From NCBI GenBank assembly GCA_016839445.1, contig JAEOUG010000183.1, positions 1 through 36,357 on the forward strand: a DNA stretch of 36,357 nucleotides, read 5' to 3'. The position numbers and the translations under genes are program-made. This DNA comes from Candidatus Thorarchaeota archaeon (GTDB lineage: Archaea; Asgardarchaeota; Thorarchaeia; Thorarchaeales; Thorarchaeaceae). The notes under the pieces are model-generated. The model searched no databases, had not been told where the DNA came from, and saw nothing but the letters and a program-made list of their open reading frames with translations. Within the stretch, counting starts at the first letter, position 1; each line of letters begins with the position of its first letter. This document shows, one piece after another, positions 5,218 through 30,337 of this stretch.

Positions 5218-6330
5218 TCACTCCTTTCCGTGCGGACTAATGACTGCCTTCACAGAGAGCTGTTTCTCTTGAGTTTCCAAGGCTTTCTGTGCATCATCAA
5301 GTGAGAAACGGTGTGTCACCAGCTTCTCAAATGGAAACCTATCATAGTTGTCTGCAATGGTCTTGATAGCCTGATAGACATGAGTGGTCTCAGAGCCCCA
5401 TACAGTCCTGATATCCAAGTGCTTTCTGTTCATGAGATGTGGATTGATCTCAACGGGTCCACTGTCTGTGTACTGCCCGCAGATGGTATAGGTCCCACCC
5501 TCACGTACAAGCTCGATGCCCTCAGGAATGGCAAGCGCGCTCCCTGTGGCCTCGTATACAATGTCTGGTCCATGACCCCCAGCTATGTCCTTGAGTATGT
5601 CCTTTCTCTCTGCAAGACTAGTATCACGGATATTCAGCGTGTGAGTTGCTCCGAACTCTTGGGCGATCTTCAAGCGGTTTGGAGCTTGGTCAATGGACGT
5701 TATCGTGGACGCTCCATTCACCTTCGCAAGGATGGCAAGCATGAGACCAACTGGTCCCGCTCCCTGAATGGCAACGTTCTTACCCCAGCCTAGCGGGCTC
5801 CTCATGACCGTATGAATCGCAGTGGGCATTGCACAGCCAACCGCGCTGGCTCCGTCAAAACTAACATGATCAGGTATCTTGATGATGTGAGTGCCTGGTG
5901 TCAGGTACAGGTATTCCGCGTAGCCCCCTATCAGATGGGGCCACTTGGTGGAATCACGAGTGATCCCGTACACCTCTCGATTTGGGCACTTCGTGGGAGC
6001 CTTTGCGATCAGGCAATACCAACAGGAATAGCAGGTCTTAGTGACGTCGTGGAATGTCACGCGGTCACCGACCTTGATCAGATTGCCGTCAAGGTCGCGG
6101 ATTGGAGAGGGGCCTACGTCTTCAATGGTTCCCACAACCTCGTGACCAGGTATGAGAGGATAGGGCACACCGGATAGCTTCCCGTGCCATAGGTGAACAT
6201 CTGTACCACACACGCCTGCGTTTGCCACTCTCATGAGAGCAGCTCCTGAGACGAGTTCCGGAATCTCATACTCCTCGACCACAAGTGGTTCGCTTGGACT
6301 AGGCACAACTGCTGCACGGCTCTTCGTCAT
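5218..6330 (-). CDS. Zinc-dependent medium-chain alcohol dehydrogenase (MDR)
   Basis: GVCGTD, GHE, structural Zn motif CYSCWYC...C, Rossmann GAGPVG. Confidence 0.92.
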   Translation of the reverse strand: MTKSRAAVVPSPSEPLVVEEYEIPELVSGAALMRVANAGVCGTDVHLWHGKLSGVPYPLIPGHEVVGTIEDVGPSPIRDLDGNLIKVGDRVTFHDVTKTCYSCWYCLIAKAPTKCPNREVYGITRDSTKWPHLIGGYAEYLYLTPGTHIIKIPDHVSFDGASAVGCAMPTAIHTVMRSPLGWGKNVAIQGAGPVGLMLAILAKVNGASTITSIDQAPNRLKIAQEFGATHTLNIRDTSLAERKDILKDIAGGHGPDIVYEATGSALAIPEGIELVREGGTYTICGQYTDSGPVEINPHLMNRKHLDIRTVWGSETTHVYQAIKTIADNYDRFPFEKLVTHRFSLDDAQKALETQEKQLSVKAVISPHGKE

Positions 6331-19258: not shown

Positions 19259-19849
19259 ATGACAGAGGTCTTCATTCATCCATTGGCTGTAGTTGACGAA
19301 GGAGCTCAGATAGGCAAAGGCACACGCATATGGCACTTCGCACACGTGAGAGGCACAGCGAAGATAGGAGAAGGCTGCAACGTAGGGAAAGACGTCTACA
19401 TTGACGCTGATGTAGTGATTGGCAACAACGTGAAGATCCAGAACGGAGTCTCGGTGTATCATGGTGTGACCATTGAAAACGACGTGTTCTGTGGTCCTCA
19501 TATGACATTCACCAACGACATGTACCCACGGGCATTCGGTGAAAGCTGGGACGTTGTCAAGACCCTCGTGAAGAAGGGGGCATCGATCGGAGCGCACGCG
19601 ACGATTGTCTGTGATACTATTCTTGGTGAGTATTGCATGATTGGCAGCGGAGCTGTCGTGACTAGAGACGTTCCTGCACACGGGTTGGTTGTTGGAAATC
19701 CTGCACGATTGGTTGGATTCGTCTGCAAGTGTGGGCAGCCACTGAGCAAAGAAGTCGCCCGATCAGACAAGTCAGTGACATTCGAGTGTGGGAAATGCAG
19801 CGAGAGAATCACCATACCCAGTGAGGACCTCAAGAGAAAGCAGCGGTAG
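19259..19849 (+). CDS. Hexapeptide-repeat N-acyltransferase (WbpD/WxcM-like) with C-terminal Zn ribbon
   Basis: FIHPLAVVD..AQIGKGTRIWHF, VKIQNGVSVY, FTND.YPR, VGNPARLVG.VCKCG...CGKC. Confidence 0.9.
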   Translation: MTEVFIHPLAVVDEGAQIGKGTRIWHFAHVRGTAKIGEGCNVGKDVYIDADVVIGNNVKIQNGVSVYHGVTIENDVFCGPHMTFTNDMYPRAFGESWDVVKTLVKKGASIGAHATIVCDTILGEYCMIGSGAVVTRDVPAHGLVVGNPARLVGFVCKCGQPLSKEVARSDKSVTFECGKCSERITIPSEDLKRKQR

Positions 19850-21954
19850 TGGGCCCATTGTCTCATCTCTACAAGAAGTTCGTAAAGGAACAGGTATCAG
19901 GCCTAGTTGACAATGTAGAGAAGATCAGGAATGTCACAGTCATTGCCCACATAGACCACGGCAAGACCACCCTCACGGATTCACTGATAGCGGCCTCTGG
20001 TCTCTTGTCGCAGGATGTTGCCGCGTCAGCGAGGCTTCTTGACTATGACTTGATTGAGCAGGAGAGAGGCATAACCATCAAGGCCTCAAGCATCTCGCTA
20101 GTTCATGAATTGGGAGGGAAGAAGCATCTCATCAACATGGTGGACACACCGGGCCATATCGACTTCTCAAGCCACGTTACCAGAGGGCTCAGACTCACTG
20201 ATGGCGCAATCATCGTCGTGGACGTAATCGAGGGAATCATGGTTCAGACTGAAACCGTCACACGTCAGGCAATGAGAGAACTTGTGAGACCAATCCTCTT
20301 CGTCAACAAGGTCGACCGGCTGTTTAGAGAGAGACGGCTCAGTGCTAAGAAGACCGCACATGAGATCAATAGGACCGTGAGAGAGTTCAATGCAATGCTG
20401 GGCAAGTATCTCGATGATGAGAGGCTCGAAGAATGGGAGGTCTCGTTCTTGAATGGGTCCCTTGGTGTTGGGTCTGCCCTTGACAAGTGGGGCATTGACA
20501 TCACTACGCTCAGTGAAAGATCAGGCAATAGCAGGGACCCATTTGAACTGGGGCAAGCCTTCGTTTCCATTCTTGAAGACATAGAGAAGGAGTACCGGAG
20601 TGACAACCGTAGAGTCCTCTCAGCCAGATACCCCGTCGGTCGAGTGCTTCTGGACTCGGTTGTGACAGTAGTGCCCAATCCGGCGCACGCACAGAGCTAC
20701 AGAGTACCCTCGTTCTGGAACGGGGATATTGAATCCCCTGCTGGCAAGTCTATTCTGAAGTGCGACCGCTCTGGACCCTGCATCTGCCTGGTAGGCGATG
20801 TGCAGCCAGACAGGCATGCTGGCACGGTGGCGTCTGTCAGGGTATTCTCCGGAACTCTGGTTCGGGCGAAACCACTGGTCACATCCAGGTCTCTTGAGAA
20901 GATGAAATCGCTTCAGATCGGGATATCCATGTCAAAGACCAGAGTGGACCTACCGGAAGTACCAGCCGGCAATCTGGCATTCATCACAGGCCTGAAGGAA
21001 GTGGCCATTGGGGACACACTCCTAGATCCGAGCGTGGCCGATACGACACCTATGAGTGAACTGCAGTATCCAACTGAGCCCGTAGTGACGTACACAATCG
21101 AGCCCAAGAGGCTATCACAACTCGCAGAGATCAAGGAGCCAATTCAGGAATATGTACAGACGGATCCTGCTCTGGAATTCCATGTGAACCCAGACACTGG
21201 AGAGATGTTGCTCTCAGGGGCGGGTGAGCTGCACGTGGAAATCACAGTTGAGAAGCTGGCCAGACAGGGCGTAGAAGTTGTCCTGGGCAAGCCGATGGTT
21301 GTGTTACGCGAACAGATGGCCAAGGATGGTTTGTCCCGAGAGGCCGGTGGGAGAGAGGTCAGCAGATTCACGGTACGTGCGGTCGTGACACGACCCGACC
21401 TGGTAGCCGAGAGTATGGGAGTTGTGCTCGACTCGGATGCGTCCACAGACAGCTGGATTCTGGATGGCTCGGGCAAGATCGGCCTTTACGACGACGAAGT
21501 GGAGTGGATAAGAGAAGCATTTCGAGTCATGATACGGACAGGGCCCAAGCATGGCGAGAAGATGAGGCGGCTTGGCGTTGTCATAGAAGATGCCAGCATC
21601 AGATGCGAGGGGCCCGAGACCTCATGGCGCGAGGTCACTCAACCTCTTATGGATGCCATCCGACAGAGCGTAATGTCCGGAGACCCAACACTGATCGAAC
21701 CCTGGGTAAGACTAGAACTGAGCGCACCGGAAGAACACATAGGTGCGCTATCGTCGATACTGGCCAGAAGACGGGGGAACGTATTGGAGATCGATTCGGA
21801 GCGCTCACTGTTCAGATTGACCGCAGAGATACCAGTAGGGGAGTCCTTCGGGCTCGCCAATGAAATAAGAACCGAAACATCAGGTTGGGCCACTTGGGGA
21901 GCCAGAAGCGGAGGCTATCGTGATATATCCAACCCAGAGACTAGGTTCGACTAA
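19849..21954 (+). CDS. Divergent archaeal elongation factor 2 paralog (aEF-2p-like translational GTPase)
   Basis: AHIDHGKTT, ERGITI, DTPGH, NKVD, GSAL, GELHVEI, EF-G domain V-like C-terminus; the diphthamide HRG loop is absent. Confidence 0.9.
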   Translation: MGPLSHLYKKFVKEQVSGLVDNVEKIRNVTVIAHIDHGKTTLTDSLIAASGLLSQDVAASARLLDYDLIEQERGITIKASSISLVHELGGKKHLINMVDTPGHIDFSSHVTRGLRLTDGAIIVVDVIEGIMVQTETVTRQAMRELVRPILFVNKVDRLFRERRLSAKKTAHEINRTVREFNAMLGKYLDDERLEEWEVSFLNGSLGVGSALDKWGIDITTLSERSGNSRDPFELGQAFVSILEDIEKEYRSDNRRVLSARYPVGRVLLDSVVTVVPNPAHAQSYRVPSFWNGDIESPAGKSILKCDRSGPCICLVGDVQPDRHAGTVASVRVFSGTLVRAKPLVTSRSLEKMKSLQIGISMSKTRVDLPEVPAGNLAFITGLKEVAIGDTLLDPSVADTTPMSELQYPTEPVVTYTIEPKRLSQLAEIKEPIQEYVQTDPALEFHVNPDTGEMLLSGAGELHVEITVEKLARQGVEVVLGKPMVVLREQMAKDGLSREAGGREVSRFTVRAVVTRPDLVAESMGVVLDSDASTDSWILDGSGKIGLYDDEVEWIREAFRVMIRTGPKHGEKMRRLGVVIEDASIRCEGPETSWREVTQPLMDAIRQSVMSGDPTLIEPWVRLELSAPEEHIGALSSILARRRGNVLEIDSERSLFRLTAEIPVGESFGLANEIRTETSGWATWGARSGGYRDISNPETRFD

Positions 21955-21957
21955 GCT

Positions 21958-24258
21958 CTACATTCGCATGTAGTATCTCTCGTTCATTATGGCCCCAAGA
22001 TATGCTAGGACCCTTCGATCAACGAGAGAGACAGAGTCCATCATTCGTAGAGCTCGATTGATGTTAGAGAACACGGCGTTAAGATAGGGTTGAGCGGGGG
22101 TCAATTCGGAGAGTTCGACCATCTCAAGATATGCGTTCGTGATCTTGACGAGACCCAGCCAATCATCCGCCAGAACGAAGTTGTACTTGCTCTCGTCGAC
22201 AGAGGGCGGTGTTGTGGTGAAGAGACCTCGGTTTATGTATGCGGCATACTGATTCTCAAGTGCAAGCGCGAACCTCCGTAGGATCTGCGTGAGCGACGCT
22301 GCGACAGCCTTGATGAACTCCGCAGACTCCCCGAAGTCAGATTCAGTCTCCATGACCTCGCCGAATGTGACCGCACACTTGTACAGGCCTGTGGCTAGCT
22401 GCGAGTAGTCCTTGTTCTCGTAGAAGTCGCGTATCGTTTGAACAAGGTACGTCTGACCCAACCAGTAGTTGCCCAACAGGGAGTCCACATTGATGACGGC
22501 GTCATCGACTGTAGGTTGAACTCGACCCGCCATCTCAAGACTCAGAGCCTCCACGTTCAGTTTAGACGCGGCTAGTGCTCCGGTCAGGCTCGCGACGTCG
22601 GAGAGGCTTGTGGACCCTCTGTTCATCCTCTTAGAACGTTCCAGAAGAGAGGACCAAGATGCACTCATGTATGGAACGACAAGGGAAACTCCCTCGATGA
22701 ACAGGAAGTCCTCAGTGGCGGGCGCATCAACAAGCATTCTGTCAATGTCATCGAGAAGACGCAGGAGTCTAGGGGGAATTGATCCGCCATGCCTCGCAAT
22801 CAACCATACAACATTGTAGGTTGAGATTGCCACCTCCACAAAGGCGCGGTTGTCAGTAGGAAAGAGAGGAACATACTGCACCAGAATATCACGGATACTG
22901 TCGGGTGTGGCTCCATCCGACCGCTCAGACTCTCTCAAGCGAGCCAGGCCGAAGCCCATTCGGGTTCCCAAGATTTCAAGGTCACTGATCAACCCCTTCT
23001 CGACCAATCGTTCACGGAGCGCCAGGGCGTTCTCAAACGACTTGAGTCCCTTGGACCAATACTCGTCAGAATCAGTGCATAGGCATAGCCACCCAATCAT
23101 GTTCTCTAGACGGGACCGTTCCACATCCTTCTCGTCCTTTGCGGCTTGGATGTCGGGCAGAACTGCACGCGCACGGTCTAGGTAGTCAAAGGCACGAGCC
23201 ATGTTCTCATGGTCGCCCATGAGGCCGTAGGCAAAACCCAGTCCTGTCAGGGTCCTGAAGACGTGCAGGCTCTGGTTGGGAGTAATCTCCTCGATGGAGT
23301 CGTATATCCTCAGTCCCTGTTCCAGCCTGTCAACAGCCTCGTCTACACCCTCTCTCCATCCGTTGGCAAGAATGCTCGAGCCTATCACCAAATGCGAGAG
23401 GCCAAGCTCATCCTTGCTGGCCATCCCACTTACAAGTGCCATCTCGTAGAGCTCAGCAGCCTTGTCTCCGATTTTCCTAGCAAGGGTAAACGATACGGAG
23501 TCATCTCGAGTTTCATTCACGCCAAGCTGGAGCATGACCTCTGCCAGACGTAGCTTATCCTTCTTCTTGCGGGCTATCTTCTCAAGGCTGTTTAGTAGGT
23601 CTCTCGATTGATCGAACATCTTCAGTTCAGTCAGCACGCAGGCATAATCGAAGGTTATCTCAAACTCCATGTCTTCCATCTTGTTCTCTCGAGATATCCC
23701 GATCAAACGGTTCATGAGAAGCTCGGCGCCCTCGAAGAATCCAGCTTCAATGAGCGACCACGCCAGAGAGTGCACTTCCCTCAAGACCATTGCATCTGTC
23801 TGCGCGTGGCGACGATCATGGATTGCATCCATGGTCATGAGAACTTCATCAGTGAAGAAGGGTAGGACCGGCCGTAGATTCATTCGTATGGAAGAAGCCA
23901 CTGCCTGAAGCAGTTCTCCTAGAATGTCAATTAGGCGGGGAATGGCTTCGATGTCAGGAAGAAGCTCACACTCAACACGTCTGTCACCACTGGTGTACCT
24001 TGCATCAAGCAGCGTAAGTATCTCAGGGAGCGTTCGATCAGGCATGAACGACAGCCGTACAGTAATCTCGGTAAGCTTGGCGCTGGCAAGGCCAGGTCTT
24101 CGGAGGATAATCTCCTCAAGTGCGCGTGCGATGTCAAAGAGGAGGTCACTCTCTTCAGGAGTCCTGAATGAGATGTTCTGTATGGCCGAGAGACCGTCAT
24201 CAAGAGAGAGTGATGCGCACAACACATCCCTTAGCGTGGCAAGAAGCACAGGTTCCAC
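21958..24258 (-). CDS. Large alpha-helical TPR-like solenoid protein
   Basis: 766-aa ORF with repeated TPR-like helices (LAEVMLQLG, AVDRLEQGLRIY, LTGLGFAYGLMG..ARAFDYLDRA, SFENALALRERL). Confidence 0.7.
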   Translation of the reverse strand: MEPVLLATLRDVLCASLSLDDGLSAIQNISFRTPEESDLLFDIARALEEIILRRPGLASAKLTEITVRLSFMPDRTLPEILTLLDARYTSGDRRVECELLPDIEAIPRLIDILGELLQAVASSIRMNLRPVLPFFTDEVLMTMDAIHDRRHAQTDAMVLREVHSLAWSLIEAGFFEGAELLMNRLIGISRENKMEDMEFEITFDYACVLTELKMFDQSRDLLNSLEKIARKKKDKLRLAEVMLQLGVNETRDDSVSFTLARKIGDKAAELYEMALVSGMASKDELGLSHLVIGSSILANGWREGVDEAVDRLEQGLRIYDSIEEITPNQSLHVFRTLTGLGFAYGLMGDHENMARAFDYLDRARAVLPDIQAAKDEKDVERSRLENMIGWLCLCTDSDEYWSKGLKSFENALALRERLVEKGLISDLEILGTRMGFGLARLRESERSDGATPDSIRDILVQYVPLFPTDNRAFVEVAISTYNVVWLIARHGGSIPPRLLRLLDDIDRMLVDAPATEDFLFIEGVSLVVPYMSASWSSLLERSKRMNRGSTSLSDVASLTGALAASKLNVEALSLEMAGRVQPTVDDAVINVDSLLGNYWLGQTYLVQTIRDFYENKDYSQLATGLYKCAVTFGEVMETESDFGESAEFIKAVAASLTQILRRFALALENQYAAYINRGLFTTTPPSVDESKYNFVLADDWLGLVKITNAYLEMVELSELTPAQPYLNAVFSNINRALRMMDSVSLVDRRVLAYLGAIMNERYYMRM

Positions 24259-24319: not shown

Positions 24320-25033
24320 TCAATGCTCGATTACGAAGTCATGCCAGACCCGCGAAGTGTCTGTCCCCCTCATCCGCTCCATCCTCAGCTGGTGGACGGG
24401 GACCTCTCCAGATTCGTTCACTTTAAACCGTAGCACTGCGTCTGCGAGGTATGAGAAGGTTGCATAGGTCTTCTCCTCATGCACACCCTCCTCCAGCACG
24501 TACATGATGCTATGAGAACTCTGTGTCACTCTGCCGCTGAGCCTCTGCACTGCGCGGGGCATCGTCGCAGCATTGGAGTGAAGGATTAGGGTGGATAGGC
24601 TGTCAATGACAACTCTAGCAACGACCAGACGCTCAAGCACTTCTGAGAGCACAATCCCGAGCTCACTGATATCGTCGACCTTCGCTAACGAGCGAGTTGT
24701 ACTGGAAATAGGAGCACCCATCCGCTCAGAGTAACCATCGATGAAGACGAACTGGCCAGAGGCCTCCTGTTGCTCGATAGTCCAGCCGTGCCTGCTCATG
24801 TCGTTGCGAATGACCCGCGGAGATACATCCGTCGTGACGAAGACAGCAGGGAACCCAAGCTCAATTCCTTCCGCTAGGAAGGCTTCTGCATAGGTCGTCT
24901 TTCCAGATCCCAGTGGACCGACTAGCATGTACGACACCTGAGTAAGTTGGCCGAACTCGACAAGGTCACTTATCATCGGTCGAGCCCGCGCCGGGGACGG
25001 TGCTTCGTTGCTGCTATTCTCGGTCGCATTCAC
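24320..25033 (-). CDS. Single-domain KaiC/RAD55-like ATPase (divergent copy)
   Basis: GPLGSGKT, VFVTTD (EE lost), RVVIDSLS, FSYLADAVLRF, LRMERMRGT. Likely start GTG 25033 after GGGGT. Confidence 0.85.
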   Translation of the reverse strand: MNATENSSNEAPSPARARPMISDLVEFGQLTQVSYMLVGPLGSGKTTYAEAFLAEGIELGFPAVFVTTDVSPRVIRNDMSRHGWTIEQQEASGQFVFIDGYSERMGAPISSTTRSLAKVDDISELGIVLSEVLERLVVARVVIDSLSTLILHSNAATMPRAVQRLSGRVTQSSHSIMYVLEEGVHEEKTYATFSYLADAVLRFKVNESGEVPVHQLRMERMRGTDTSRVWHDFVIEH

Positions 25034-25050
25034 TTCTCGGACCCCATGTC

Positions 25051-25797
25051 TTAGTGTCCAGGCCCTATCTCTCCAGGCCACACTCTTATGCCTTCATCAG
25101 TGATACGCATCGAGTGTATCCGCGAGCTGTGTTTTGAACCTCTTAGTTTGAGGACTTCAATGGAGCGCGATCTCGACGTTTCACTGATCTTCTCGTTGTA
25201 CAGTACGATGACTCCGCTCGCTAAGAAGGCTTCGATATCAAAAACGCCCAGTCCCTGATCCTGAGCCGGTATCTCGCTAGTGAGGAGAAGTGTGCATCCC
25301 GTCTTGGTAATGGTAGCGGCGAGCTTGAAGAACTCCTCTCTCAGAATGTCTCTACTCCGGAACTTGTAGGCCATAATCGAGAGAGTATCGAGGACAACTC
25401 GCTTCGCCTTGATTTTCTTGATGTGGTTCATGATGATGGCTTCCAGTCCAGAGAGGTCAAAGCTGGGATACTCACCAATTGTGACGGGAGTGACCTCCTT
25501 GGACGGGGAGAGATCTACGATAGAGATCATGCCATCCTTCTCAAGGCCTTCGAGATCCATTTTGAATCGGGCCATGTTTCTCTTGATGAGTTGTGGAGGT
25601 TCCTCCAATGTCACCAACACCCCGGGCTCACCATAATCCTTAGCCCCTCTGTAGATGAACTGCGTAGCCAAGATGCTTTTTCCAGTGCCTGCCTTTCCAG
25701 CCACTAGGATTGTGTCCCCTCTCGGGAAGCCTCCTTCGATCAGTTCATCAAGACCTGGGATTCCTGTCTTCACACGCTCTATTGTCTGGTCGCTCAT
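25051..25797 (-). CDS. Single-domain KaiC/RAD55-like ATPase
   Basis: RVKTGIPGLDELIEGGFP, GKAGTGKS, VTLEE, RVVLDT, LLTSE, RSIEVLKLRGS. Confidence 0.92.
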   Translation of the reverse strand: MSDQTIERVKTGIPGLDELIEGGFPRGDTILVAGKAGTGKSILATQFIYRGAKDYGEPGVLVTLEEPPQLIKRNMARFKMDLEGLEKDGMISIVDLSPSKEVTPVTIGEYPSFDLSGLEAIIMNHIKKIKAKRVVLDTLSIMAYKFRSRDILREEFFKLAATITKTGCTLLLTSEIPAQDQGLGVFDIEAFLASGVIVLYNEKISETSRSRSIEVLKLRGSKHSSRIHSMRITDEGIRVWPGEIGPGH

Positions 25798-26183
25798 TTC
25801 GACTCACCCTTCTTCTTCCGAGATGCCACTCTGGCTCCGAGAATCATCTTGATCAGCATGTCCGGTTCAGGGATACCGGTGATTGAGACGCCACCTATCA
25901 TCACCGTGGGCAGAGCAAAGACACCGTATTCCTCTGCAACCTCTGGGTTCTCGGTGACGTTGATGACGTTCAAGTAGAAGCTGTCGGGGCCAAAGTCCTC
26001 TATTGTTTCACGTATCACTTCCTCGGCGCGTGGACAGAAGGCGCAGGTCTCAGACTTGAAGAGGACTACCTCAATCTTATCAGAGAGTTCCTCCTCAGTC
26101 GGCGTACCAGCCTCCTTGCTATCTGTCACACGGCGTTGCTCCTGAACCATGGAAGTGGCAGAGTCAAAGACGCTGCTCATCAC
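25794..26183 (-). CDS. Thioredoxin-fold protein (CAFC) with KaiB-like features, translationally coupled to the KaiC-like gene
   Basis: VVLFKSETCAFCPRA, LNVINVTENPEVAEEYGVFALPTV, GIP; ATGA overlap with 25051-25797. Confidence 0.85.
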   Translation of the reverse strand: MMSSVFDSATSMVQEQRRVTDSKEAGTPTEEELSDKIEVVLFKSETCAFCPRAEEVIRETIEDFGPDSFYLNVINVTENPEVAEEYGVFALPTVMIGGVSITGIPEPDMLIKMILGARVASRKKKGESK

Positions 26184-26228
26184 TTGAATGTTTTGAGCGT
26201 ATTATCTATGTGCATACTGAACTGATGC

Positions 26229-26612
26229 CTATTTGTAACCCATGAGACGTCGAATCCGGGTCGAGGCTTTTCCGACGGCCCGAGAGTGGTATCGGACGTT
26301 CCGCGGCATCAGTGCTCCAATAATCAGGGATTCATCGCCCCTTGATCCAACTCGCTTGAACACGGCCTTGCCTTGTGCACATCTGAGGCTGATATCACGA
26401 ACATGACCGAGCATCAATTCAGAACGGACGCGCTCGGCAACCTCAGCTATCATGCCAGCCATTGCGGCGACCAGGTCCTGGTTAGCGGTCGGCGATGCGG
26501 CGGAGGCCACTAGGAGACCATCACCTCTGGCAAGAACTGAAACCGTGTAGCCCCCTTCCCGATTCATCTCCTCAAGTATCATGGGAAGCTTATTGTAGTC
26601 AGGCCGTTCCAT
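26229..26612 (-). CDS. Roadblock/LC7 (MglB-like) domain protein
   Basis: ILEEM..EGGYTVSVLARGDGLLVAS...VAAMAG...ELMLG..RDISL...GKAVF fits the Roadblock fold pattern. Confidence 0.85.
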   Translation of the reverse strand: MERPDYNKLPMILEEMNREGGYTVSVLARGDGLLVASAASPTANQDLVAAMAGMIAEVAERVRSELMLGHVRDISLRCAQGKAVFKRVGSRGDESLIIGALMPRNVRYHSRAVGKASTRIRRLMGYK

Positions 26613-26656
26613 TTCAGCGAAATCCTCCGTGCTGCCGCTTAGTTCCGGTGGTTCCC

Positions 26657-26703
26657 TATTAAATCATCTGAGACTGTCTACCGTCACAGTAGAGATTTAA
26701 ATG
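26657..26703. promoter_or_regulatory. Back-to-back TATA boxes (minus ATTTAATA 26664-26657; plus TTTAAATG 26696-26703) flanking a TCTAC-N7-GTAGA dyad
   Basis: Each box lies about 40-45 nt upstream of a divergent start (Roadblock ATG 26612; Rab TTG 26740); dyad at 26677-26693. Confidence 0.5.
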
Positions 26704-26739
26704 GTGTCGAGTTCAGTCCATCGCAGGGAGTGTGTTCAA

Positions 26740-27270
26740 TTGTCTACGGAATACCGCTTCAAGATTGTGATGCTCGGAGAGGGTGCCGTAGGAAAGACAG
26801 CCATGACGCTCCGCTTCACACAGAACTACTTCGAGACAGACTACAAGCGAACAATCGGCACCGATTTCTCTGTCAAGCGCCTCAAGATCCCCGAGTACGA
26901 CACCGATGTTACGCTACAAATATGGGACTTAGCGGGACAACCGCGGTTCGAATCAGTACGGCAGGGCTTCTACCGGGGAGCGCGAGGCGGACTTCTCCTC
27001 TATGACGTCACACGGCGAAGGACCTTCATTAGCCTCGAGAACTGGAAGGAGGAGACTTTCAGGAGCCTGGACAGGGAGATTCCGTTGGCGGTTGTAGCTA
27101 ACAAGATAGACCTTGTTGAGAGCAGGGTAGTGACTCCTGAAGAAGGTCAGGAGTACGCCAGAGAGCACAACCACCTGTACGTCGAATGCAGCGCGCTCAC
27201 GGGACATAATGTCGAGGATGCCTACGTCGATCTCTGCAAGAGAATGATTGATGAGTCAAAGAAGAGCTGA
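26740..27270 (+). CDS. Rab-like small GTPase #1
   Basis: GEGAVGKT, TIGTDF, LQIWDLAGQ, RFESV, FYRGA, LYDVT, NKID, CSAL; no C-terminal prenylation Cys. GGGAGTG SD before TTG 26740. Confidence 0.93.
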   Translation: MSTEYRFKIVMLGEGAVGKTAMTLRFTQNYFETDYKRTIGTDFSVKRLKIPEYDTDVTLQIWDLAGQPRFESVRQGFYRGARGGLLLYDVTRRRTFISLENWKEETFRSLDREIPLAVVANKIDLVESRVVTPEEGQEYAREHNHLYVECSALTGHNVEDAYVDLCKRMIDESKKS

Positions 27271-27274
27271 TGGG

Positions 27275-28402
27275 CTATCTTCGTCTGACCTTGCCCTTAA
27301 GCAATCCAAGGGCCCTTCTGCATTGCCACAGCACATAGAAGACGCTCTTTGACTGGAGAATCTCGGGGTCGTACCCCGCTACGAGCTCCTCGTATTTCCG
27401 GATGAGCTCCTGGTTGCTTGCAGGAGCTGGGTCAGCCTCAATCTCCTTCAGGAGGTTCTCGAAGGGAGCAAGCATAGCACCCATGTCAGTGACCTCCCAT
27501 CTTAGCACGGCCCCAGAGCCGTCTTCTGTGATGAAGGCATTCCCAGTCGGCAGCCACTCGATTCCGTCAATTTCACCGATAGTGGTAGCTTGACCCACCA
27601 CTGTTTCGGAGTCCACTTCCCAGAGGAACAGGTCTTTGTCAGAGGAGCCAGAAACAAGGTACTTGCCGTCGGGGCTGAAGCCCAAGGCTCGCACTTCTCC
27701 CGAGTGCTGATGAAGAGTACTTGTTATCTTCATTGGTTTCCAGCTGGAGTCCCACAGTACTATGATCTGATCAGAAGAGCAGGAGGCAAGTCTCTTACCA
27801 TCATGTGAGAAGCGTGTGTGGTGGACTGCCGCGCGATGCTCTTGGTGCTTCTCAATGAGCTTGCCAGATATTGCGTCCCATTCACAGATGTTGGCGTCCA
27901 CAGACCCAGAAACGATCCGGTTGTCGGTTGGGTCCCAGTCGCATGTTACCACATAGAACCCGTGACCCTTCATCTTGTGCATCTTTGACTGGTCGTCGAT
28001 ATTCCAGACTGTCAGAGTTGTATCGCCGCTTCCTGACACAAGCCTGTCACCATCAGGAGAGAAAGCCAGACATAGAACCGGATAGGTGTGATCTCGTAGC
28101 TGGCCCAGACACTCCCCAGTCTTGATGTCCCATAGCTTGATGACATGTTCGACGGTCCCAGCGGCCACAATGTCCCCCCTAGGGCTAAAGGCCAGTGAGG
28201 TGCATAGAAAGTCATCCTGAACCTTCTGCATCTCCTCTCCGGTCTCAGCGGCATAGAAGCGAACTGTCCTGTCCTGAAGAGCGGCGGCAAACATGCGGCC
28301 GACTTTGTTCATGGCAAACCGGCGTGTGATGTCCCCGCCCTGTTCGGCGGCGGGTTTGAGGATCTTGGGTTTGAGAAATACAGAGAGATCTTGACCTTCC
28401 AT
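27275..28402 (-). CDS. WD40 beta-propeller protein (about 7 blades) with a short helical C-terminal tail
   Basis: Repeats such as HTYPVLCLAFSPDGDRLVSGSGDTTLTVWN and HSGEVRALGFSPDGKYLVSGSSDKDLFLWE; GGAGTG SD before ATG 28402. Confidence 0.92.
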   Translation of the reverse strand: MEGQDLSVFLKPKILKPAAEQGGDITRRFAMNKVGRMFAAALQDRTVRFYAAETGEEMQKVQDDFLCTSLAFSPRGDIVAAGTVEHVIKLWDIKTGECLGQLRDHTYPVLCLAFSPDGDRLVSGSGDTTLTVWNIDDQSKMHKMKGHGFYVVTCDWDPTDNRIVSGSVDANICEWDAISGKLIEKHQEHRAAVHHTRFSHDGKRLASCSSDQIIVLWDSSWKPMKITSTLHQHSGEVRALGFSPDGKYLVSGSSDKDLFLWEVDSETVVGQATTIGEIDGIEWLPTGNAFITEDGSGAVLRWEVTDMGAMLAPFENLLKEIEADPAPASNQELIRKYEELVAGYDPEILQSKSVFYVLWQCRRALGLLKGKVRRR

Positions 28403-28512
28403 CCGGTTCACTCCTTGCCGGCTCTAAGGGCTGGAAAAACTGACAACGTAAAAAGGGTTCCTTGGATGTGCTTGGCAGTGCACTCCGGCCTGTTCCTCAA
28501 TCAGAACAAGTA

Positions 28513-28518
28513 TTATAA
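28513..28518 (+). promoter_or_regulatory. Putative TATA box TTATAA for the HEAT/appendage gene
   Basis: Preceded by purine-rich GAACAAG (BRE-like); 35 nt upstream of TTG 28553, with GGAGGG SD in between. Confidence 0.5.
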
Positions 28519-28552
28519 TCCCAGTAGCATCGGCAGACTCGGAGGGCCCCGA

Positions 28553-29764
28553 TTGTCCAAGAAGAGCGAACGCACTCTGACCTCTGCACTGGGAGGAGGA
28601 GAACCGCTTCGTTTGCTGAAGAAGGCAATCAAGAAGATATCCAAGCCTTCAGAGGATAAGATAGGGAAGACACTAGAGAGCATCACGAGCATTCAGGCAT
28701 GCAAGGATGCGGCCCTCACAGGAGACGAGAATCTACGATTACTGGCAGTCATGAAGCTCCCAGACTTCGGTGTCGAGGCTCTCGAGCCTCTCGAGCTGGC
28801 ACTCAACGACGAGAGTTCGCTAGTAAGAGTAGCATCTGCCGGAATGCTGGCGGCTCTGGGCGACCGTGATGGTGTGGCCCTAATGGAGCAACACCTTAAC
28901 GACAACAACGACACCGTGAGAGCTGCCTTGGAGTACTCAATCCAGTGGCTTCAGAGAAAGGGAAAGGTGCTTGCGAAACCAACTCGATTGACGAAAGGAA
29001 CAGATCCCTTGGGAATCCTCCTTGAGGATCTTGTGCCCTTGGGGACTACTGATGAAGTCCTAGTCAAGAACGACTTCGCGGCACTTCCTGGCAGTCTGCA
29101 GTTTGGCATGACCATTGAGAACGAGAGCTTCGCGACAATCAGGGATGTCCGAGTAGAGATTCTGTCATATCCCAAGGAGAACCTAACTCCTGAAGACTCC
29201 CAAGTTCAGATGATTGAAGAGATACTCCAGGGAGAGTCTAATAGCCTGATCTTCGAGTTCCGCGTGGACGGCGATTGCGTAGAGGGAGAGATCATCACGT
29301 CGGTAACCCTAAGAGATGAGACCGGAGAGAAACTGGCCGCCAAGTCAGGTAATGTCTTCGTCCGATCGATCTACGAGCAGATTGAGCCCATCGACATAAC
29401 GGAAGACGAATTCCTGACAGTCAAATCGGAGATGACAAACTGGAACCGTGAGCACATGCTTGCCAGCGAGCCAGTCGAGGTCTTCGAAGCCCTAGTGAAG
29501 ATCATCGAAGACAAGAACATGAGGATATTCCAGTTTGACTCTGCAGAGAAGAAAAAGGCGTTCATGGGGATTGTCGCAGCAATGGGCAAAGGACGCCACT
29601 CGGGTAATCGGATAGCGGTGTCTTTCACCGTGGCCGGAACGAAGGATGATGAGCTGTCCAAGCTGCGTATAGATGTGTTCTCGGACAATGCCGAGATACT
29701 CCACAGTGCAGCAAGCGCAATCTTTGAGGAGATTCAGGTAGTACTGGGTGTTCTTGACGACTAG
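28553..29764 (+). CDS. HEAT-repeat protein with C-terminal Ig-like plus platform domains resembling the beta-COP/adaptin appendage
   Basis: HEAT repeats LELALNDESSLVRVASAGMLAALG and HLNDNNDTVRAAL; beta-sandwich LQFGMTIENES...VRVEIL...GESNSLIFEF...GEIITSVTL; platform-like tail IEPIDITEDEF...NMRIF...FMG...LRIDVFSDN. Confidence 0.7.
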   Translation: MSKKSERTLTSALGGGEPLRLLKKAIKKISKPSEDKIGKTLESITSIQACKDAALTGDENLRLLAVMKLPDFGVEALEPLELALNDESSLVRVASAGMLAALGDRDGVALMEQHLNDNNDTVRAALEYSIQWLQRKGKVLAKPTRLTKGTDPLGILLEDLVPLGTTDEVLVKNDFAALPGSLQFGMTIENESFATIRDVRVEILSYPKENLTPEDSQVQMIEEILQGESNSLIFEFRVDGDCVEGEIITSVTLRDETGEKLAAKSGNVFVRSIYEQIEPIDITEDEFLTVKSEMTNWNREHMLASEPVEVFEALVKIIEDKNMRIFQFDSAEKKKAFMGIVAAMGKGRHSGNRIAVSFTVAGTKDDELSKLRIDVFSDNAEILHSAASAIFEEIQVVLGVLDD

Positions 29765-29770
29765 ACGAGT

Positions 29771-30337
29771 CTAAGCCAGCCCACCAGCCTCGAGTATCTT
29801 AATCGCGAGCTCGAGGAAAGCAGCCTCAACATTCTCGCCAGTCTTCGCGGAGGTCTCGATGAAGGATGTGTGGACTCCATTGCTGGCAATCTTGTTAGCC
29901 AGGTTCTGTCCTTCCTCGGTGGTGACAATGGTCTGCTGCATCACCGGATTGTCCTTGAACTGCTCACGGAGATCTGTCTTGTTAGCCACGAGAACGATTG
30001 GTATCTTCTTGCCAGCATTGGTCCAGCATTCATCGACCCAGCTCATGAGATTATCATACGAGCCCCGTTCAACGGTGGAGTAGACAGCCAGAGCGCCCTG
30101 GGCACCCTTGTAGAAAGTAGAGCGAACACTCTTGAAGTGCTCTTGTCCGGCTAAGTCCCATATTTGGATGCTCACATCATGGCCGCCCTCAAGACTCATC
30201 TTCTTGACCGCGAAGTCAGCCCCGATGGTGATCATGTAGTTGGCTCGGAAACCTTCTCCCATGTAGGTCCGGCGCAGGCTGGTCTTCCCGACACTGCCAT
30301 CTCCCATTAGCACGACTTTGAACAATGCAGTGACCAT
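29771..30337 (-). CDS. Rab-like small GTPase #2
   Basis: GDGSVGKT, TIGADF, IQIWDLAGQ, FYKGA, NKTD, ETSAK; no CAAX/CC tail. Confidence 0.93.
   Translation of the reverse strand: MVTALFKVVLMGDGSVGKTSLRRTYMGEGFRANYMITIGADFAVKKMSLEGGHDVSIQIWDLAGQEHFKSVRSTFYKGAQGALAVYSTVERGSYDNLMSWVDECWTNAGKKIPIVLVANKTDLREQFKDNPVMQQTIVTTEEGQNLANKIASNGVHTSFIETSAKTGENVEAAFLELAIKILEAGGLA

Follow-up and report, generated by a model that had tools for sequence, protein, structure and literature searches.

A conserved Roadblock–thioredoxin–KaiC–KaiC operon of Thorarchaeota as a candidate KaiBC-like switch coupled to small GTPases

Introduction

To our knowledge, cyanobacterial KaiB lacks a redox-active CxxC motif, and SasA's thioredoxin-like domain likewise has no CxxC. 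Both KaiB and the SasA domain dock on the B-loop of KaiC, and F122 and D123 of KaiC are needed for this docking, as stated in a preprint (Swan et al., bioRxiv 10.1101/2020.06.17.158394). According to a census, KaiB is found only together with full-length KaiC (Schmelling et al. 2017). Here, we describe an archaeal operon in which a CxxC thioredoxin stands in the position of KaiB, next to a single-domain KaiC. The operon lies in a stretch of 36,357 nucleotides (the window), positions 1 to 36,357 of the forward strand of contig JAEOUG010000183.1 (GenBank assembly GCA_016839445.1) from a Candidatus Thorarchaeota archaeon. It consists of genes for a Roadblock/LC7 protein, a small thioredoxin (Trx) and two KaiC paralogs (KaiC1 and KaiC2), and it is flanked by a divergent gene for a Rab-like small GTPase.

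A Rab protein of Thorarchaeota (Thor-Rab) has been crystallised (PDB 7EZB, 7EZD and 7EZE). The paper describing it names contig LRSL01000056.1 and says that the partners of Thor-Rab are hard to predict (Tran et al. 2024, PMC10933270). In its treatment of Arg37, the paper states that, among the Rab paralogs of SMTZ1-45, Thor-Rab alone carries an Arg which corresponds to MglA's intrinsic Arg finger. The words 'KaiC' and 'thioredoxin' have 0 occurrences in the main text of that paper.

On balance, we think that the operon encodes a KaiBC-like ATPase switch with a redox-capable partner in the position of KaiB, and that this switch is coupled to small GTPases. The operon suggests a way in which close archaeal kin of eukaryotes might time GTPase switches or gate them.

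Results

Gene order in the operon

A sequence-only reading of the locus had described four co-oriented genes with gaps of 45, −4 and about 17 nt. The list of open reading frames (ORFs) and the sequence itself bear this out, and the KaiB-resembling peptide and the CAFC motif quoted in the same reading are both present. The gap of 45 nt separates the Roadblock stop codon from the GTG start codon of the Trx gene, and the Trx and KaiC1 genes overlap by the four nucleotides ATGA. The gap of 17 nt separates the KaiC1 stop codon (25051) from a GTG at 25033. This GTG is probably the start of KaiC2, because the Val that it encodes is conserved in orthologs. The longest ORF would make the two KaiC genes overlap by 31 nt, and a start at the first ATG (24976) would open a gap of 74 nt. 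A fifth co-oriented gene, absent from the sequence-only reading and encoding a TPR-like solenoid, follows KaiC2 after 61 nt; the neighbours of its 766-aa product in the ESM atlas, which serve as a lead only, are all generic TPR clusters. The divergently transcribed Rab gene that had been reported beside the operon was also found; its product matches Pfam Ras (PF00071) with 171.4 bits. By eye, the intergenic region between Rab and Roadblock contains a TTTAATA-like A/T-rich box, and we infer a putative shared promoter region there.

Conservation within Thorarchaeota

The search for Trx orthologs covered 400 genomes of the phylum. Orthologs of at least 116 bits were found in 72 of the 86 genomes of family f1, including that of the window (G000), and in the single genome of the sister family f2 (G025); the next best match scored 70.9 bits. 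The order Roadblock–Trx–KaiC1 is kept in 20/20 loci, in 15/15 representatives of the other f1 genera and in 62/62 public contigs. These three sets share species and, being kin, represent one lineage. KaiC2 keeps its place in the same sets, and Roadblock is always the first gene of the operon among the Thorarchaeota loci examined. The public contigs are titled Candidatus Thorarchaeota, and 50 of the 62 show the full series Rab (minus)/Roadblock/Trx/KaiC1/KaiC2/TPR; the others are cut by a contig end or have no Rab. Rab is divergent from Roadblock in 56/62 Thorarchaeota loci. In f2, it is co-directional and lies just upstream of Roadblock, and the TPR gene is absent. A TPR-like gene follows KaiC2 in 14/15 genus representatives and in 55/62 loci. 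Genomes without a Trx ortholog are also without a KaiC1 ortholog, except for cases at contig edges; this is weak evidence because the two genes adjoin. The arrangement is far beyond chance.

Trx is a thioredoxin in the position of KaiB

Sequence and fold both identify the small protein as an MJ0307-type thioredoxin. It matches Pfam Thioredoxin_3 (PF13192) with 39.8 bits (cut-off 24.8), and its best NCBIfam family is that of the MJ0307 thioredoxin (TIGR00411), with 55.5 bits, which is below the equivalog cut-off of 92.75. We searched the PDB with a profile of 20 Trx orthologs. The best match was 1FO5 (MJ0307; 8.3e-17), followed by protein disulfide oxidoreductase (PDO)- and glutaredoxin-like chains and 1NHO (1.5e-12). 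The first KaiB chain (3.6e-4) stood about 41st among the best 60 matches listed. The AlphaFold2 (AF2) model of Trx, with a predicted local distance difference test (pLDDT) score of 89, has a minimal β-α-β-α-β-β-α fold, with strands at 2–7, 34–39, 57–60 and 63–66 and helices at 14–26, 44–50 and 71–90. Fold-switched KaiB has the same topology, which is common to all thioredoxins and so does not discriminate. This single model shows the thioredoxin fold only. The top Foldseek matches of the model in the PDB were thioredoxins or thioredoxin fusions, with no KaiB among the best 50 listed.

The active site is well conserved. All 35 loci of Thorarchaeota and f2 that were found by hidden Markov model carry C-x-F-C (31 CAFC, 2 CPFC, 1 CGFC and 1 CIFC); the 62 public loci were found by a pattern seeded with 'CAFCPRAE' and are uninformative on this point. 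The cis-Pro residue, in ALPT or one of three variants, is present in 97/97 loci. Trx has both the CxxC and the cis-Pro loop of the Thioredoxin_3/MJ0307 type. The absence of a CxxC, a mark of KaiB, is found not in Trx but in its Cys-less homologs in families f21 and f7 (see below). Another mark of KaiB, a gene next to kaiC, is found here as the 4-nt overlap, and the linkage is kept in all related loci examined. In this respect, Trx holds the position of KaiB relative to KaiC1. For 23/23 Trx orthologs of the Thorarchaeota type, KaiB is the second-best Pfam family (E < 0.01, best 7e-7), with scores under or close to its cut-off. Among paralogous thioredoxins of Thorarchaeota, only 2/8 match Pfam KaiB, with about 17 bits.

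Outside the KaiC-linked group, the closest homologs of Trx (about 71 bits) are histidine kinases of 660–700 aa in family f20 (L072–L075). Read by eye, their architecture is PAS-Trx(CVYC)-PAS-HisKA/HATPase, for example in L072:2510-4570 (minus). Proteins of about 490–540 aa in several Asgard families (L021–L023, L025 and L026) have, again by eye, an N-terminal CxxC thioredoxin followed by two V4R-like repeats with CxGxG...C motifs, as in L021:5309-6919 (plus). The Trx-matching ORFs of about 500 aa and 660–700 aa had been candidates for KaiC fusions; they were rejected as Trx-V4R-V4R proteins and PAS-Trx-PAS kinases, respectively. The nearest homologs of Trx thus appear to sit in sensor proteins, in line with a sensing role.

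KaiC1 and KaiC2

KaiC1 matches Pfam KaiC (PF06745) with 241.2 bits. Its Walker A motif (GKAGTGKS), its catalytic Glu pair (EE65-66) and the Walker B Asp (D137) are invariant in 23 orthologs. When compared with PDB 8zn5_B, KaiC1 scored 175.5 bits with the CI domain and 82.1 bits with the CII domain. It consists of one domain (248 aa) and has neither the CI-CII architecture nor the CII phosphorylation sites of the circadian KaiC. Its scores for the circadian families are correspondingly low (TIGR02655, 153.5 bits versus a cut-off of 546.25; PRK09302, 204.1 versus 408). KaiC1 is thus an intact single-domain ATPase of the KaiC family, CI-like and equipped with a B-loop.

The segment of KaiC1 that corresponds to the B-loop aligns with the KaiC CI segment 'DASPDPEGQEVVGGFDLSALIERI'. 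The aligned segment has no F-D dipeptide other than that at positions 113–114, and we take F113-D114 as the probable counterpart of F122-D123 of KaiC. F113 is invariant in 9/9 KaiCs linked to Trx or to a KaiB-like protein. The B-loop with its F-D motif was considered as a marker of Trx-linked KaiCs only, and this was rejected, as KaiCs linked to Lrp or SNAP genes share it.

KaiC2 matches PF06745 with 106.5 bits and DUF7504 with 43.1 bits. Its Walker A motif (GPLGSGKT) is intact, but 'LEE' of KaiC1 aligns to 'TDV' (in VTTDVSP). KaiC2 is therefore a degenerate KaiC paralog in which the catalytic Glu pair is lost. By BLASTP, it matches the KaiC-like half of a KaiC::GTPase fusion protein of f21 (3e-9), described below.

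The window genome has three true KaiC genes: KaiC1, KaiC2 and an Lrp-linked one on contig C60. A weak 'KaiC' match beside a Roadblock gene on its contig C43 was tried as a second module and rejected; it is RadA (helix-hairpin-helix plus RecA-type sequence). An AsnC/Lrp-type helix-turn-helix gene directly upstream of KaiC is widespread (C60:845-2065 (plus) in the window genome; L079–L082, L086, L088–L090 and L196). The Lrp-linked KaiCs form a separate subfamily, with clade support of 97/95 to 100/97, in at least five families examined.

Predicted docking of Trx on KaiC1

To obtain a model of the interaction, we made one complex prediction with KaiC1, KaiC2 and the Trx core, in three runs and with a separate 23-row alignment of our own for each chain. 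The interface score ipSAE was 0.64 in all three runs, and the highest-scoring of three controls gave 0.00; the mark used for this score is reached by 116/157 solved complexes and by 2/215 mismatched pairs. The runs share at least 94% of their contacts, and the pLDDT of the partner is at least 79. Of the two KaiCs, only KaiC1 takes part in the predicted interface, with residues 94–96, 100, 102–121, 123–124 and 145, which make up the B-loop and its following helix. On Trx, the interface comprises the CxxC face (6, 8, 10–13 and 16–17) and the C-terminal half (40–41, 44–45, 47–57, 59 and 61–70). The contacts, the tightest pairs among them, centre on KaiC1 residues 113–118 (F-D-L-S-G-L), which meet Trx residues 53–55, 11–13 and 44–48. 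The CAFC motif lies within the predicted interface. The model predicts that Trx binds the B-loop of KaiC1 as fold-switched KaiB and the SasA domain bind KaiC CI.

Related modules in other Asgard families

Trx-KaiC pairs related to that of the window were found in four further Asgard families (f13, f33, f21 and f7). In f13 (Atabeyarchaeia), a longin-like protein of 152 aa, a Trx (CGFC), a KaiC and a Gtr1/RagA-like GTPase are encoded in 2/2 loci, and the GTPases match PF04670 with 64.5 and 81.1 bits. The model of the 152-aa protein (β-β-α-β-β-β-α-α; pLDDT 76.8) has its best PDB matches in GATOR1 subunits, DENND1, Ykt6 and longin domains of the SEA complex. These matches are weak: the top one, 9o5d_D, has a query-based TM-score (TMq) of 0.62 and E = 9.8e-4, and is the only one at E ≤ 1e-3. 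The atlas neighbours of the 152-aa protein, again a lead only, belong to the NPR2, NPRL3, C9orf72 and folliculin families. In f33, a Trx (CAFC) is followed by a KaiC and a DUF7504-type KaiC2. The proteins encoded upstream of Trx in L076 (f13) and L078 (f33) gave no match to the Roadblock profile by BLASTP or hhalign; the L076 protein proved longin-like instead. The L078 protein (5674-6024, minus), upstream of the CAFC Trx, has no Pfam match and looks by eye like a degenerate thioredoxin, with CSRS in the place of CxxC and 'AAPAT...VGIP' resembling the cis-Pro region.

In f21 (Freyarchaeum/Jordarchaeaceae) and f7, the order is a Cys-less small protein, a KaiC and an ORF of 379–420 aa. The small protein has 'RTPKY' where CAFC stands in Trx and keeps the cis-Pro. 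KaiC and the long downstream ORF are present in 7/7 loci listed, and the small ORF in 6/7, the seventh (in L163) being found by motif scan. All four long ORFs tested (4/4) are fusions of KaiC with an Arf/Ras-like GTPase: a KaiC-like domain without Walker A spans about residues 1–224, and the GTPase P-loop, GAYHAGKT, lies at about 223. For three of the f21 small proteins, KaiB is the best Pfam family, with 26.9, 27.1 and 27.9 bits (cut-off 27). NCBI names one f21 small protein 'circadian clock KaiB family protein' and others 'thioredoxin family protein'. By hhalign, the Trx profile of Thorarchaeota aligned with the Cys-less set over 77 columns (95.3% probability, E 2.3e-8), which identifies the two as probable homologs.

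In the KaiC tree, the Trx-linked KaiC of f33 is sister to the KaiCs linked to KaiB-like proteins (99/99), and the Lrp- and SNAP-linked KaiCs form a separate group (96/91). Further KaiC genes also stand beside GTPase or Roadblock genes, as Rab-KaiC-KaiC2 (truncated KaiC) in f10, Rab-KaiC-KaiC2::REC in f32 and KaiC-Roadblock-GTPase in Atabeyarchaeia. Such GTPase-linked Asgard KaiCs lie at L204:1223-3276 (minus), L197:1837-3974 (minus) and L198:1158-4166 (minus) and in L085/L087. The KaiC-Roadblock-GTPase locus of Atabeyarchaeia also shows a divergent, weak longin match, and f32 has, in addition, the order REC-KaiC-Rab-unknown-KaiC. Among 15 further KaiC loci, 7 had no thioredoxin, Roadblock or GTPase gene nearby; among the partnerless loci, six (L190–L195) have ordinary genes of metabolism or replication on their flanks, and the flanks of L200 hold Cdc6 and a KaiC-like ORF that is truncated. 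Taken together, the Thorarchaeota operon is rather likely to be one version of a KaiBC-like module, Asgard-wide and coupled to small GTPases.

Rab and Roadblock

In the PDB, the window Rab matches 7ezb_A ('Thorarchaeota Rab'; 7.9e-88). The Rab of SMTZ1-45 (L102 = LRSL01000056.1, 1293-1814, minus) is identical to 7ezb_A over all 174 aligned residues. These matches identify the window Rab as the ortholog of the crystallised Thor-Rab, the gene of which adjoins the Roadblock-Trx-KaiC-KaiC operon in SMTZ1-45. The window Rab carries the MglA-like switch-I Arg (R50, in YKRTIG), and the second Rab of the window lacks it. Such an Arg fits an adjoining, MglB-like Roadblock partner.

Roadblock matches Pfam Robl_LC7 (PF03259) with 34.5 bits (cut-off 23), and its best PDB match, a distant one, is the Roadblock/LC7 chain 7yh1_D (2.5e-5, 28 bits). 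By analogy, Roadblock may be an MglB-like regulator of the adjacent Rab, that is, a platform for GTPase-activating or guanine nucleotide exchange activity. R77 and C78 of Roadblock are nearly invariant (at least 90% of 20 orthologs, absent in G025), and the Cys is a possible thiol target of Trx.

Neighbouring genes and feature coordinates

Beyond Rab, the window encodes a conserved block with a WD40 propeller, a HEAT protein and a second Rab (Rab2). WD40 and Rab2 are syntenic in 13/15 genus representatives and HEAT in 5/15. On the other side, an EF-2/EF-G-like GTPase paralog is syntenic in all Thorarchaeota representatives with a long enough contig and in G025. Taken as a set, the propeller, solenoid, Rab and Roadblock proteins of 27275-30337 and the module recall coat- or GATOR-like assemblies. 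The remaining genes of the window are housekeeping genes, and the GC content is level throughout. The coordinates of all features are collected in Table 1.

Table 1. Features of the operon, its surroundings and related loci; positions refer to the window unless a locus is named
Feature	Position	Strand	Remarks
Roadblock/LC7 gene	26229-26612	minus	127 aa; Robl_LC7 match
Trx gene (small CAFC thioredoxin)	25794-26183	minus	129 aa; Thioredoxin_3 match
Trx conserved core	25797-26075	minus	N-terminal extension variable, charged
CAFC active-site motif	26034-26045	minus	residues 47-50 of the 129-aa ORF
cis-Pro motif ALPT	residues 90-93 of the 129-aa Trx ORF	minus	from the sequence
KaiC1 gene	25051-25797	minus	248 aa; KaiC PF06745 match
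KaiC1 B-loop equivalent and following helix	25426-25518	minus	residues 94-124, including F113-D114
KaiC2 gene	24320-25033 (GTG start) or 24320-25081 (longest ORF, 253 aa)	minus	KaiC PF06745 match
TPR-like solenoid gene	21958-24258	minus	766 aa; fifth co-oriented gene; weak TPR_12 match
Rab-like small GTPase gene	26701-27270	plus	Pfam Ras match; divergent from Roadblock
Rab-Roadblock divergent intergenic region	26613-26700		88 nt; putative shared promoter region
WD40 propeller gene	27275-28411	minus	Pfam; conserved neighbouring block
HEAT protein gene	28391-29764	plus	Pfam; conserved neighbouring block
Second Rab (Rab2) gene	29771-30337	minus	Pfam; conserved neighbouring block
EF-2/EF-G-like GTPase paralog gene	19849-21954	plus	701 aa; convergent with the TPR-like gene
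152-aa longin-like genes (f13)	L076:4402-4857; L077:5978-6436	plus; minus	head of operon
KaiC-like::Arf/Ras-like fusion genes (f21, f7)	L156-L166, e.g. L160:2229-3389	plus (L160)	downstream of KaiB-like and KaiC genes

Discussion

The sequence-only reading had proposed a KaiB-like thioredoxin and KaiC that might together form a timer or switch under redox control, wired to small GTPases. The wiring is strongly supported, by the synteny of Rab and Roadblock in Thorarchaeota, the co-directional Rab in f2, the f13 operons and the f21/f7 fusions. The linkage of Roadblock, Trx and KaiC1, which was to be checked for conservation, held in all three overlapping sets. Docking in the manner of KaiB on CI was likewise obtained, as a prediction that may be memory (see below). 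What became of 'KaiB-like' is mixed. Trx does have the position of KaiB and is translationally coupled to a CI-like KaiC, but it misses the cut-offs for KaiB, and its profile and fold say thioredoxin.

In the mechanism that we propose, the nucleotide state of KaiC1, which would probably sit in a ring together with KaiC2 or stacked on it, would decide whether Trx is bound. The dithiol or disulfide state of C-x-F-C would modulate this binding or report the redox state. The resulting complex would control the Roadblock dimer, which would act on Rab in the manner of MglB. Slow ATPase chemistry, and possibly the redox state, would thereby gate a GTPase switch. The degenerate second KaiC would link the module to the small GTPase, with Roadblock or the longin protein as regulator of the latter. 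Because the Cys-less partners of f21 and f7 persist, we argue that the conserved role of the small protein would be binding and not disulfide reduction. In Thorarchaeota, f13 and f33, the strict conservation of C-x-F-C speaks for a role of redox chemistry.

Several observations weigh against this KaiBC-like reading. When KaiB and Thioredoxin_3 were compared as profiles for the Trx ORF, as the sequence-only reading had suggested, Thioredoxin_3 lay over its cut-off and Pfam KaiB (PF07689; 24.6 bits versus 27) under it. The NCBIfam circadian KaiB model (TIGR02654) gave 16 bits versus a cut-off of 145.3, and both profile and fold group Trx with the MJ0307/PDO thioredoxins. The docking score may stem from the predictor having memorised the KaiB-CI and SasA-CI structures already solved (5JWO and 6X61), and the controls of the prediction included no paralogous thioredoxin. 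Lrp- and SNAP-linked KaiCs without a thioredoxin neighbour also carry the B-loop with F-D or F-N, so the docking site is not specific to the module. There is no conserved Cys at the KaiC1 interface and none at all in KaiC2, which leaves the conservation of C-x-F-C as the ground for redox gating. Most of the synteny comes from one family, the members of which are kin and not independent. Finally, a single clade of all KaiCs linked to Trx or KaiB-like proteins had moderate support (85/84) in a first tree; in a second, with 13 such KaiCs, it was neither recovered nor rejected (approximately unbiased test, p-AU 0.449).

The strongest of the alternatives is that Trx is a dedicated disulfide reductase of a module partner, such as Cys78 of Roadblock or the cysteines of the TPR protein, and that KaiC is merely co-expressed with it. 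Trx would then be no stable KaiB-like ligand of KaiC, and the redox state would act on the regulator of the GTPase. The invariance of C-x-F-C and of the cis-Pro residue is what an active oxidoreductase needs, genuine thioredoxins and PDOs are the best profile matches, and Cys78 is conserved in Roadblock orthologs as given above. Substrates of thioredoxins bind the cis-Pro face, and it is this face that Trx turns to KaiC1 in the model. Nevertheless, a module with a Cys-less homolog in the same place persists in f21 and f7, so that reduction cannot be the conserved role. The Roadblock Cys is absent in G025, and the KaiC1 interface and KaiC2 offer no target Cys. We regard a reductase role as improbable.

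Less probable still is a hub, made up of the two KaiCs and their small partner, with an output other than GTPases (for example transcription, motility or proteostasis), the synteny with Rab and Roadblock being inherited. Within one family, synteny can last by descent, and here it extends over everything between Rab2 and the EF-2 paralog, unlikely partners included. With 28 Ras-family and 13 Roadblock matches in the window genome, some of these genes should adjoin by chance. The GTPases of MK-D1 are reportedly not in general encoded in operons with Roadblock or longin genes. Such a hub is difficult to reconcile with GTPase linkage in arrangements unrelated to one another: a GTPase domain is fused to the second KaiC in f21 and f7, in f13 a Rag-like GTPase gene follows directly downstream, and f2 has a co-directional Rab. 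Families f10 and f32 add Rab-KaiC-KaiC2, Atabeyarchaeia add KaiC-Roadblock-GTPase, and true KaiC genes number only three in the window genome. It is very improbable that a KaiC-like ATPase here underlies an anti-virus defence or mobile-element system: such ATPases reportedly occur in some defence candidates and one Asgard virus, and KaiC1 has one sub-threshold PADLOC match to mad8 (E 4.8e-4 over 38 residues), but 0/6 module proteins have a meaningful PADLOC match, the chromosomal position of the operon, amid housekeeping genes, is stable in 16 genera, the GC content of the window is flat, and Pfam finds no nuclease or other effector domain.

The KaiBC-like reading can be taken further, tentatively and with clearly less confidence. 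The slow ATPase of Asgard KaiC might serve as a timer, or as an energy or redox gate, for small-GTPase cycles. A thioredoxin-fold partner would bind the B-loop, KaiC2 would be tethered or fused to a Rab-, Rag- or Arf-like GTPase, and Roadblock or longin proteins would form the platform. The redox-active state of Thorarchaeota and the Cys-less state of Jord- and Freyarchaeia would then capture the transition from thioredoxin to KaiB, and a clock-type ATPase would be connected with the forerunners of the Rag/GATOR- and Rab-type switches of eukaryotes.

If the reading is true, it addresses the regulation of the many Asgard small GTPases, and the crystallised Thor-Rab gains concrete, clonable candidate regulators in the Roadblock-Trx-KaiC-KaiC operon. 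KaiB-type partners would no longer be limited to full-length clock KaiC but would include single-domain KaiC of archaea, against the statement of the 2017 census (Schmelling et al.). CxxC and Cys-less versions of the partner in one orthologous module would make a thioredoxin origin of KaiB testable. The KaiC::GTPase fusions and the longin-Trx-KaiC-Rag-like operons would join slow-ATPase and GTPase switches in those archaea that are most closely related to eukaryotes. A full-text literature search, from which Makarova et al. 2017 and supplements were outside the coverage, returned no paper that joins KaiC, Asgard and GTPase or that reports a KaiC–small GTPase fusion in archaea. Likewise, the papers examined in a full-text search for KaiB and Asgard held nothing relevant.

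How does the operon compare with the systems already described? As in the KaiB-KaiC systems of cyanobacteria and proteobacteria, with their night complex and KaiBC hourglass timers, a small thioredoxin-fold protein is encoded directly upstream of kaiC. A CI-like domain, the B-loop and the F-D motif are shared, and the docking predicted here is on the B-loop, as reported for fold-switched KaiB. In contrast, the window KaiC has a single domain, without CII or any domain with Ser/Thr phosphorylation sites. Its partner retains C-x-F-C and scores as thioredoxin and not as KaiB. A second, degenerate KaiC is present and KaiA, SasA and CikA are absent, and the proposed output is a small GTPase. SasA's N-terminal domain on KaiC CI (PDB 6X61) has a stable thioredoxin fold, needs no fold switch and uses the same B-loop site. 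It would be the better analogy for Trx, which is predicted in the plain β-α-β-α-β-β-α fold. The SasA domain is fused to a histidine kinase, whereas Trx of the window stands alone and bears Cys.

The nearest sequence relatives of Trx, MJ0307 and Mt0807 (1FO5 and 1NHO), share its fold of 85–93 residues, the CxxC and the cis-Pro. Trx differs in scoring below the TIGR00411 cut-off, in its C-x-F-C signature and in its strict linkage to kaiC. On the GTPase side, we know of no MglAB operon that contains thioredoxin or KaiC genes. The locus shares with MglA-MglB a Roadblock gene that adjoins the gene for a small GTPase with an MglA-like switch-I Arg; here, however, the GTPase is Rab-like by sequence and structure, and Roadblock is in operon order with the Trx and KaiC genes. 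The Atabeyarchaeia variant shares a Gtr1/RagA-like GTPase and a longin-fold protein with Rag-Ragulator-GATOR1, the latter likeness being based on weak structural matches and an atlas lead; the eukaryotic pathway has no known KaiC or thioredoxin. Finally, for archaeal KaiC-like signal transduction hubs, ArlH and CirA-D, operons are reported in which KaiC paralogs, single-domain as well as inactivated, stand with input and output domains of various kinds, a pattern into which the pair KaiC1 and KaiC2 would fit.

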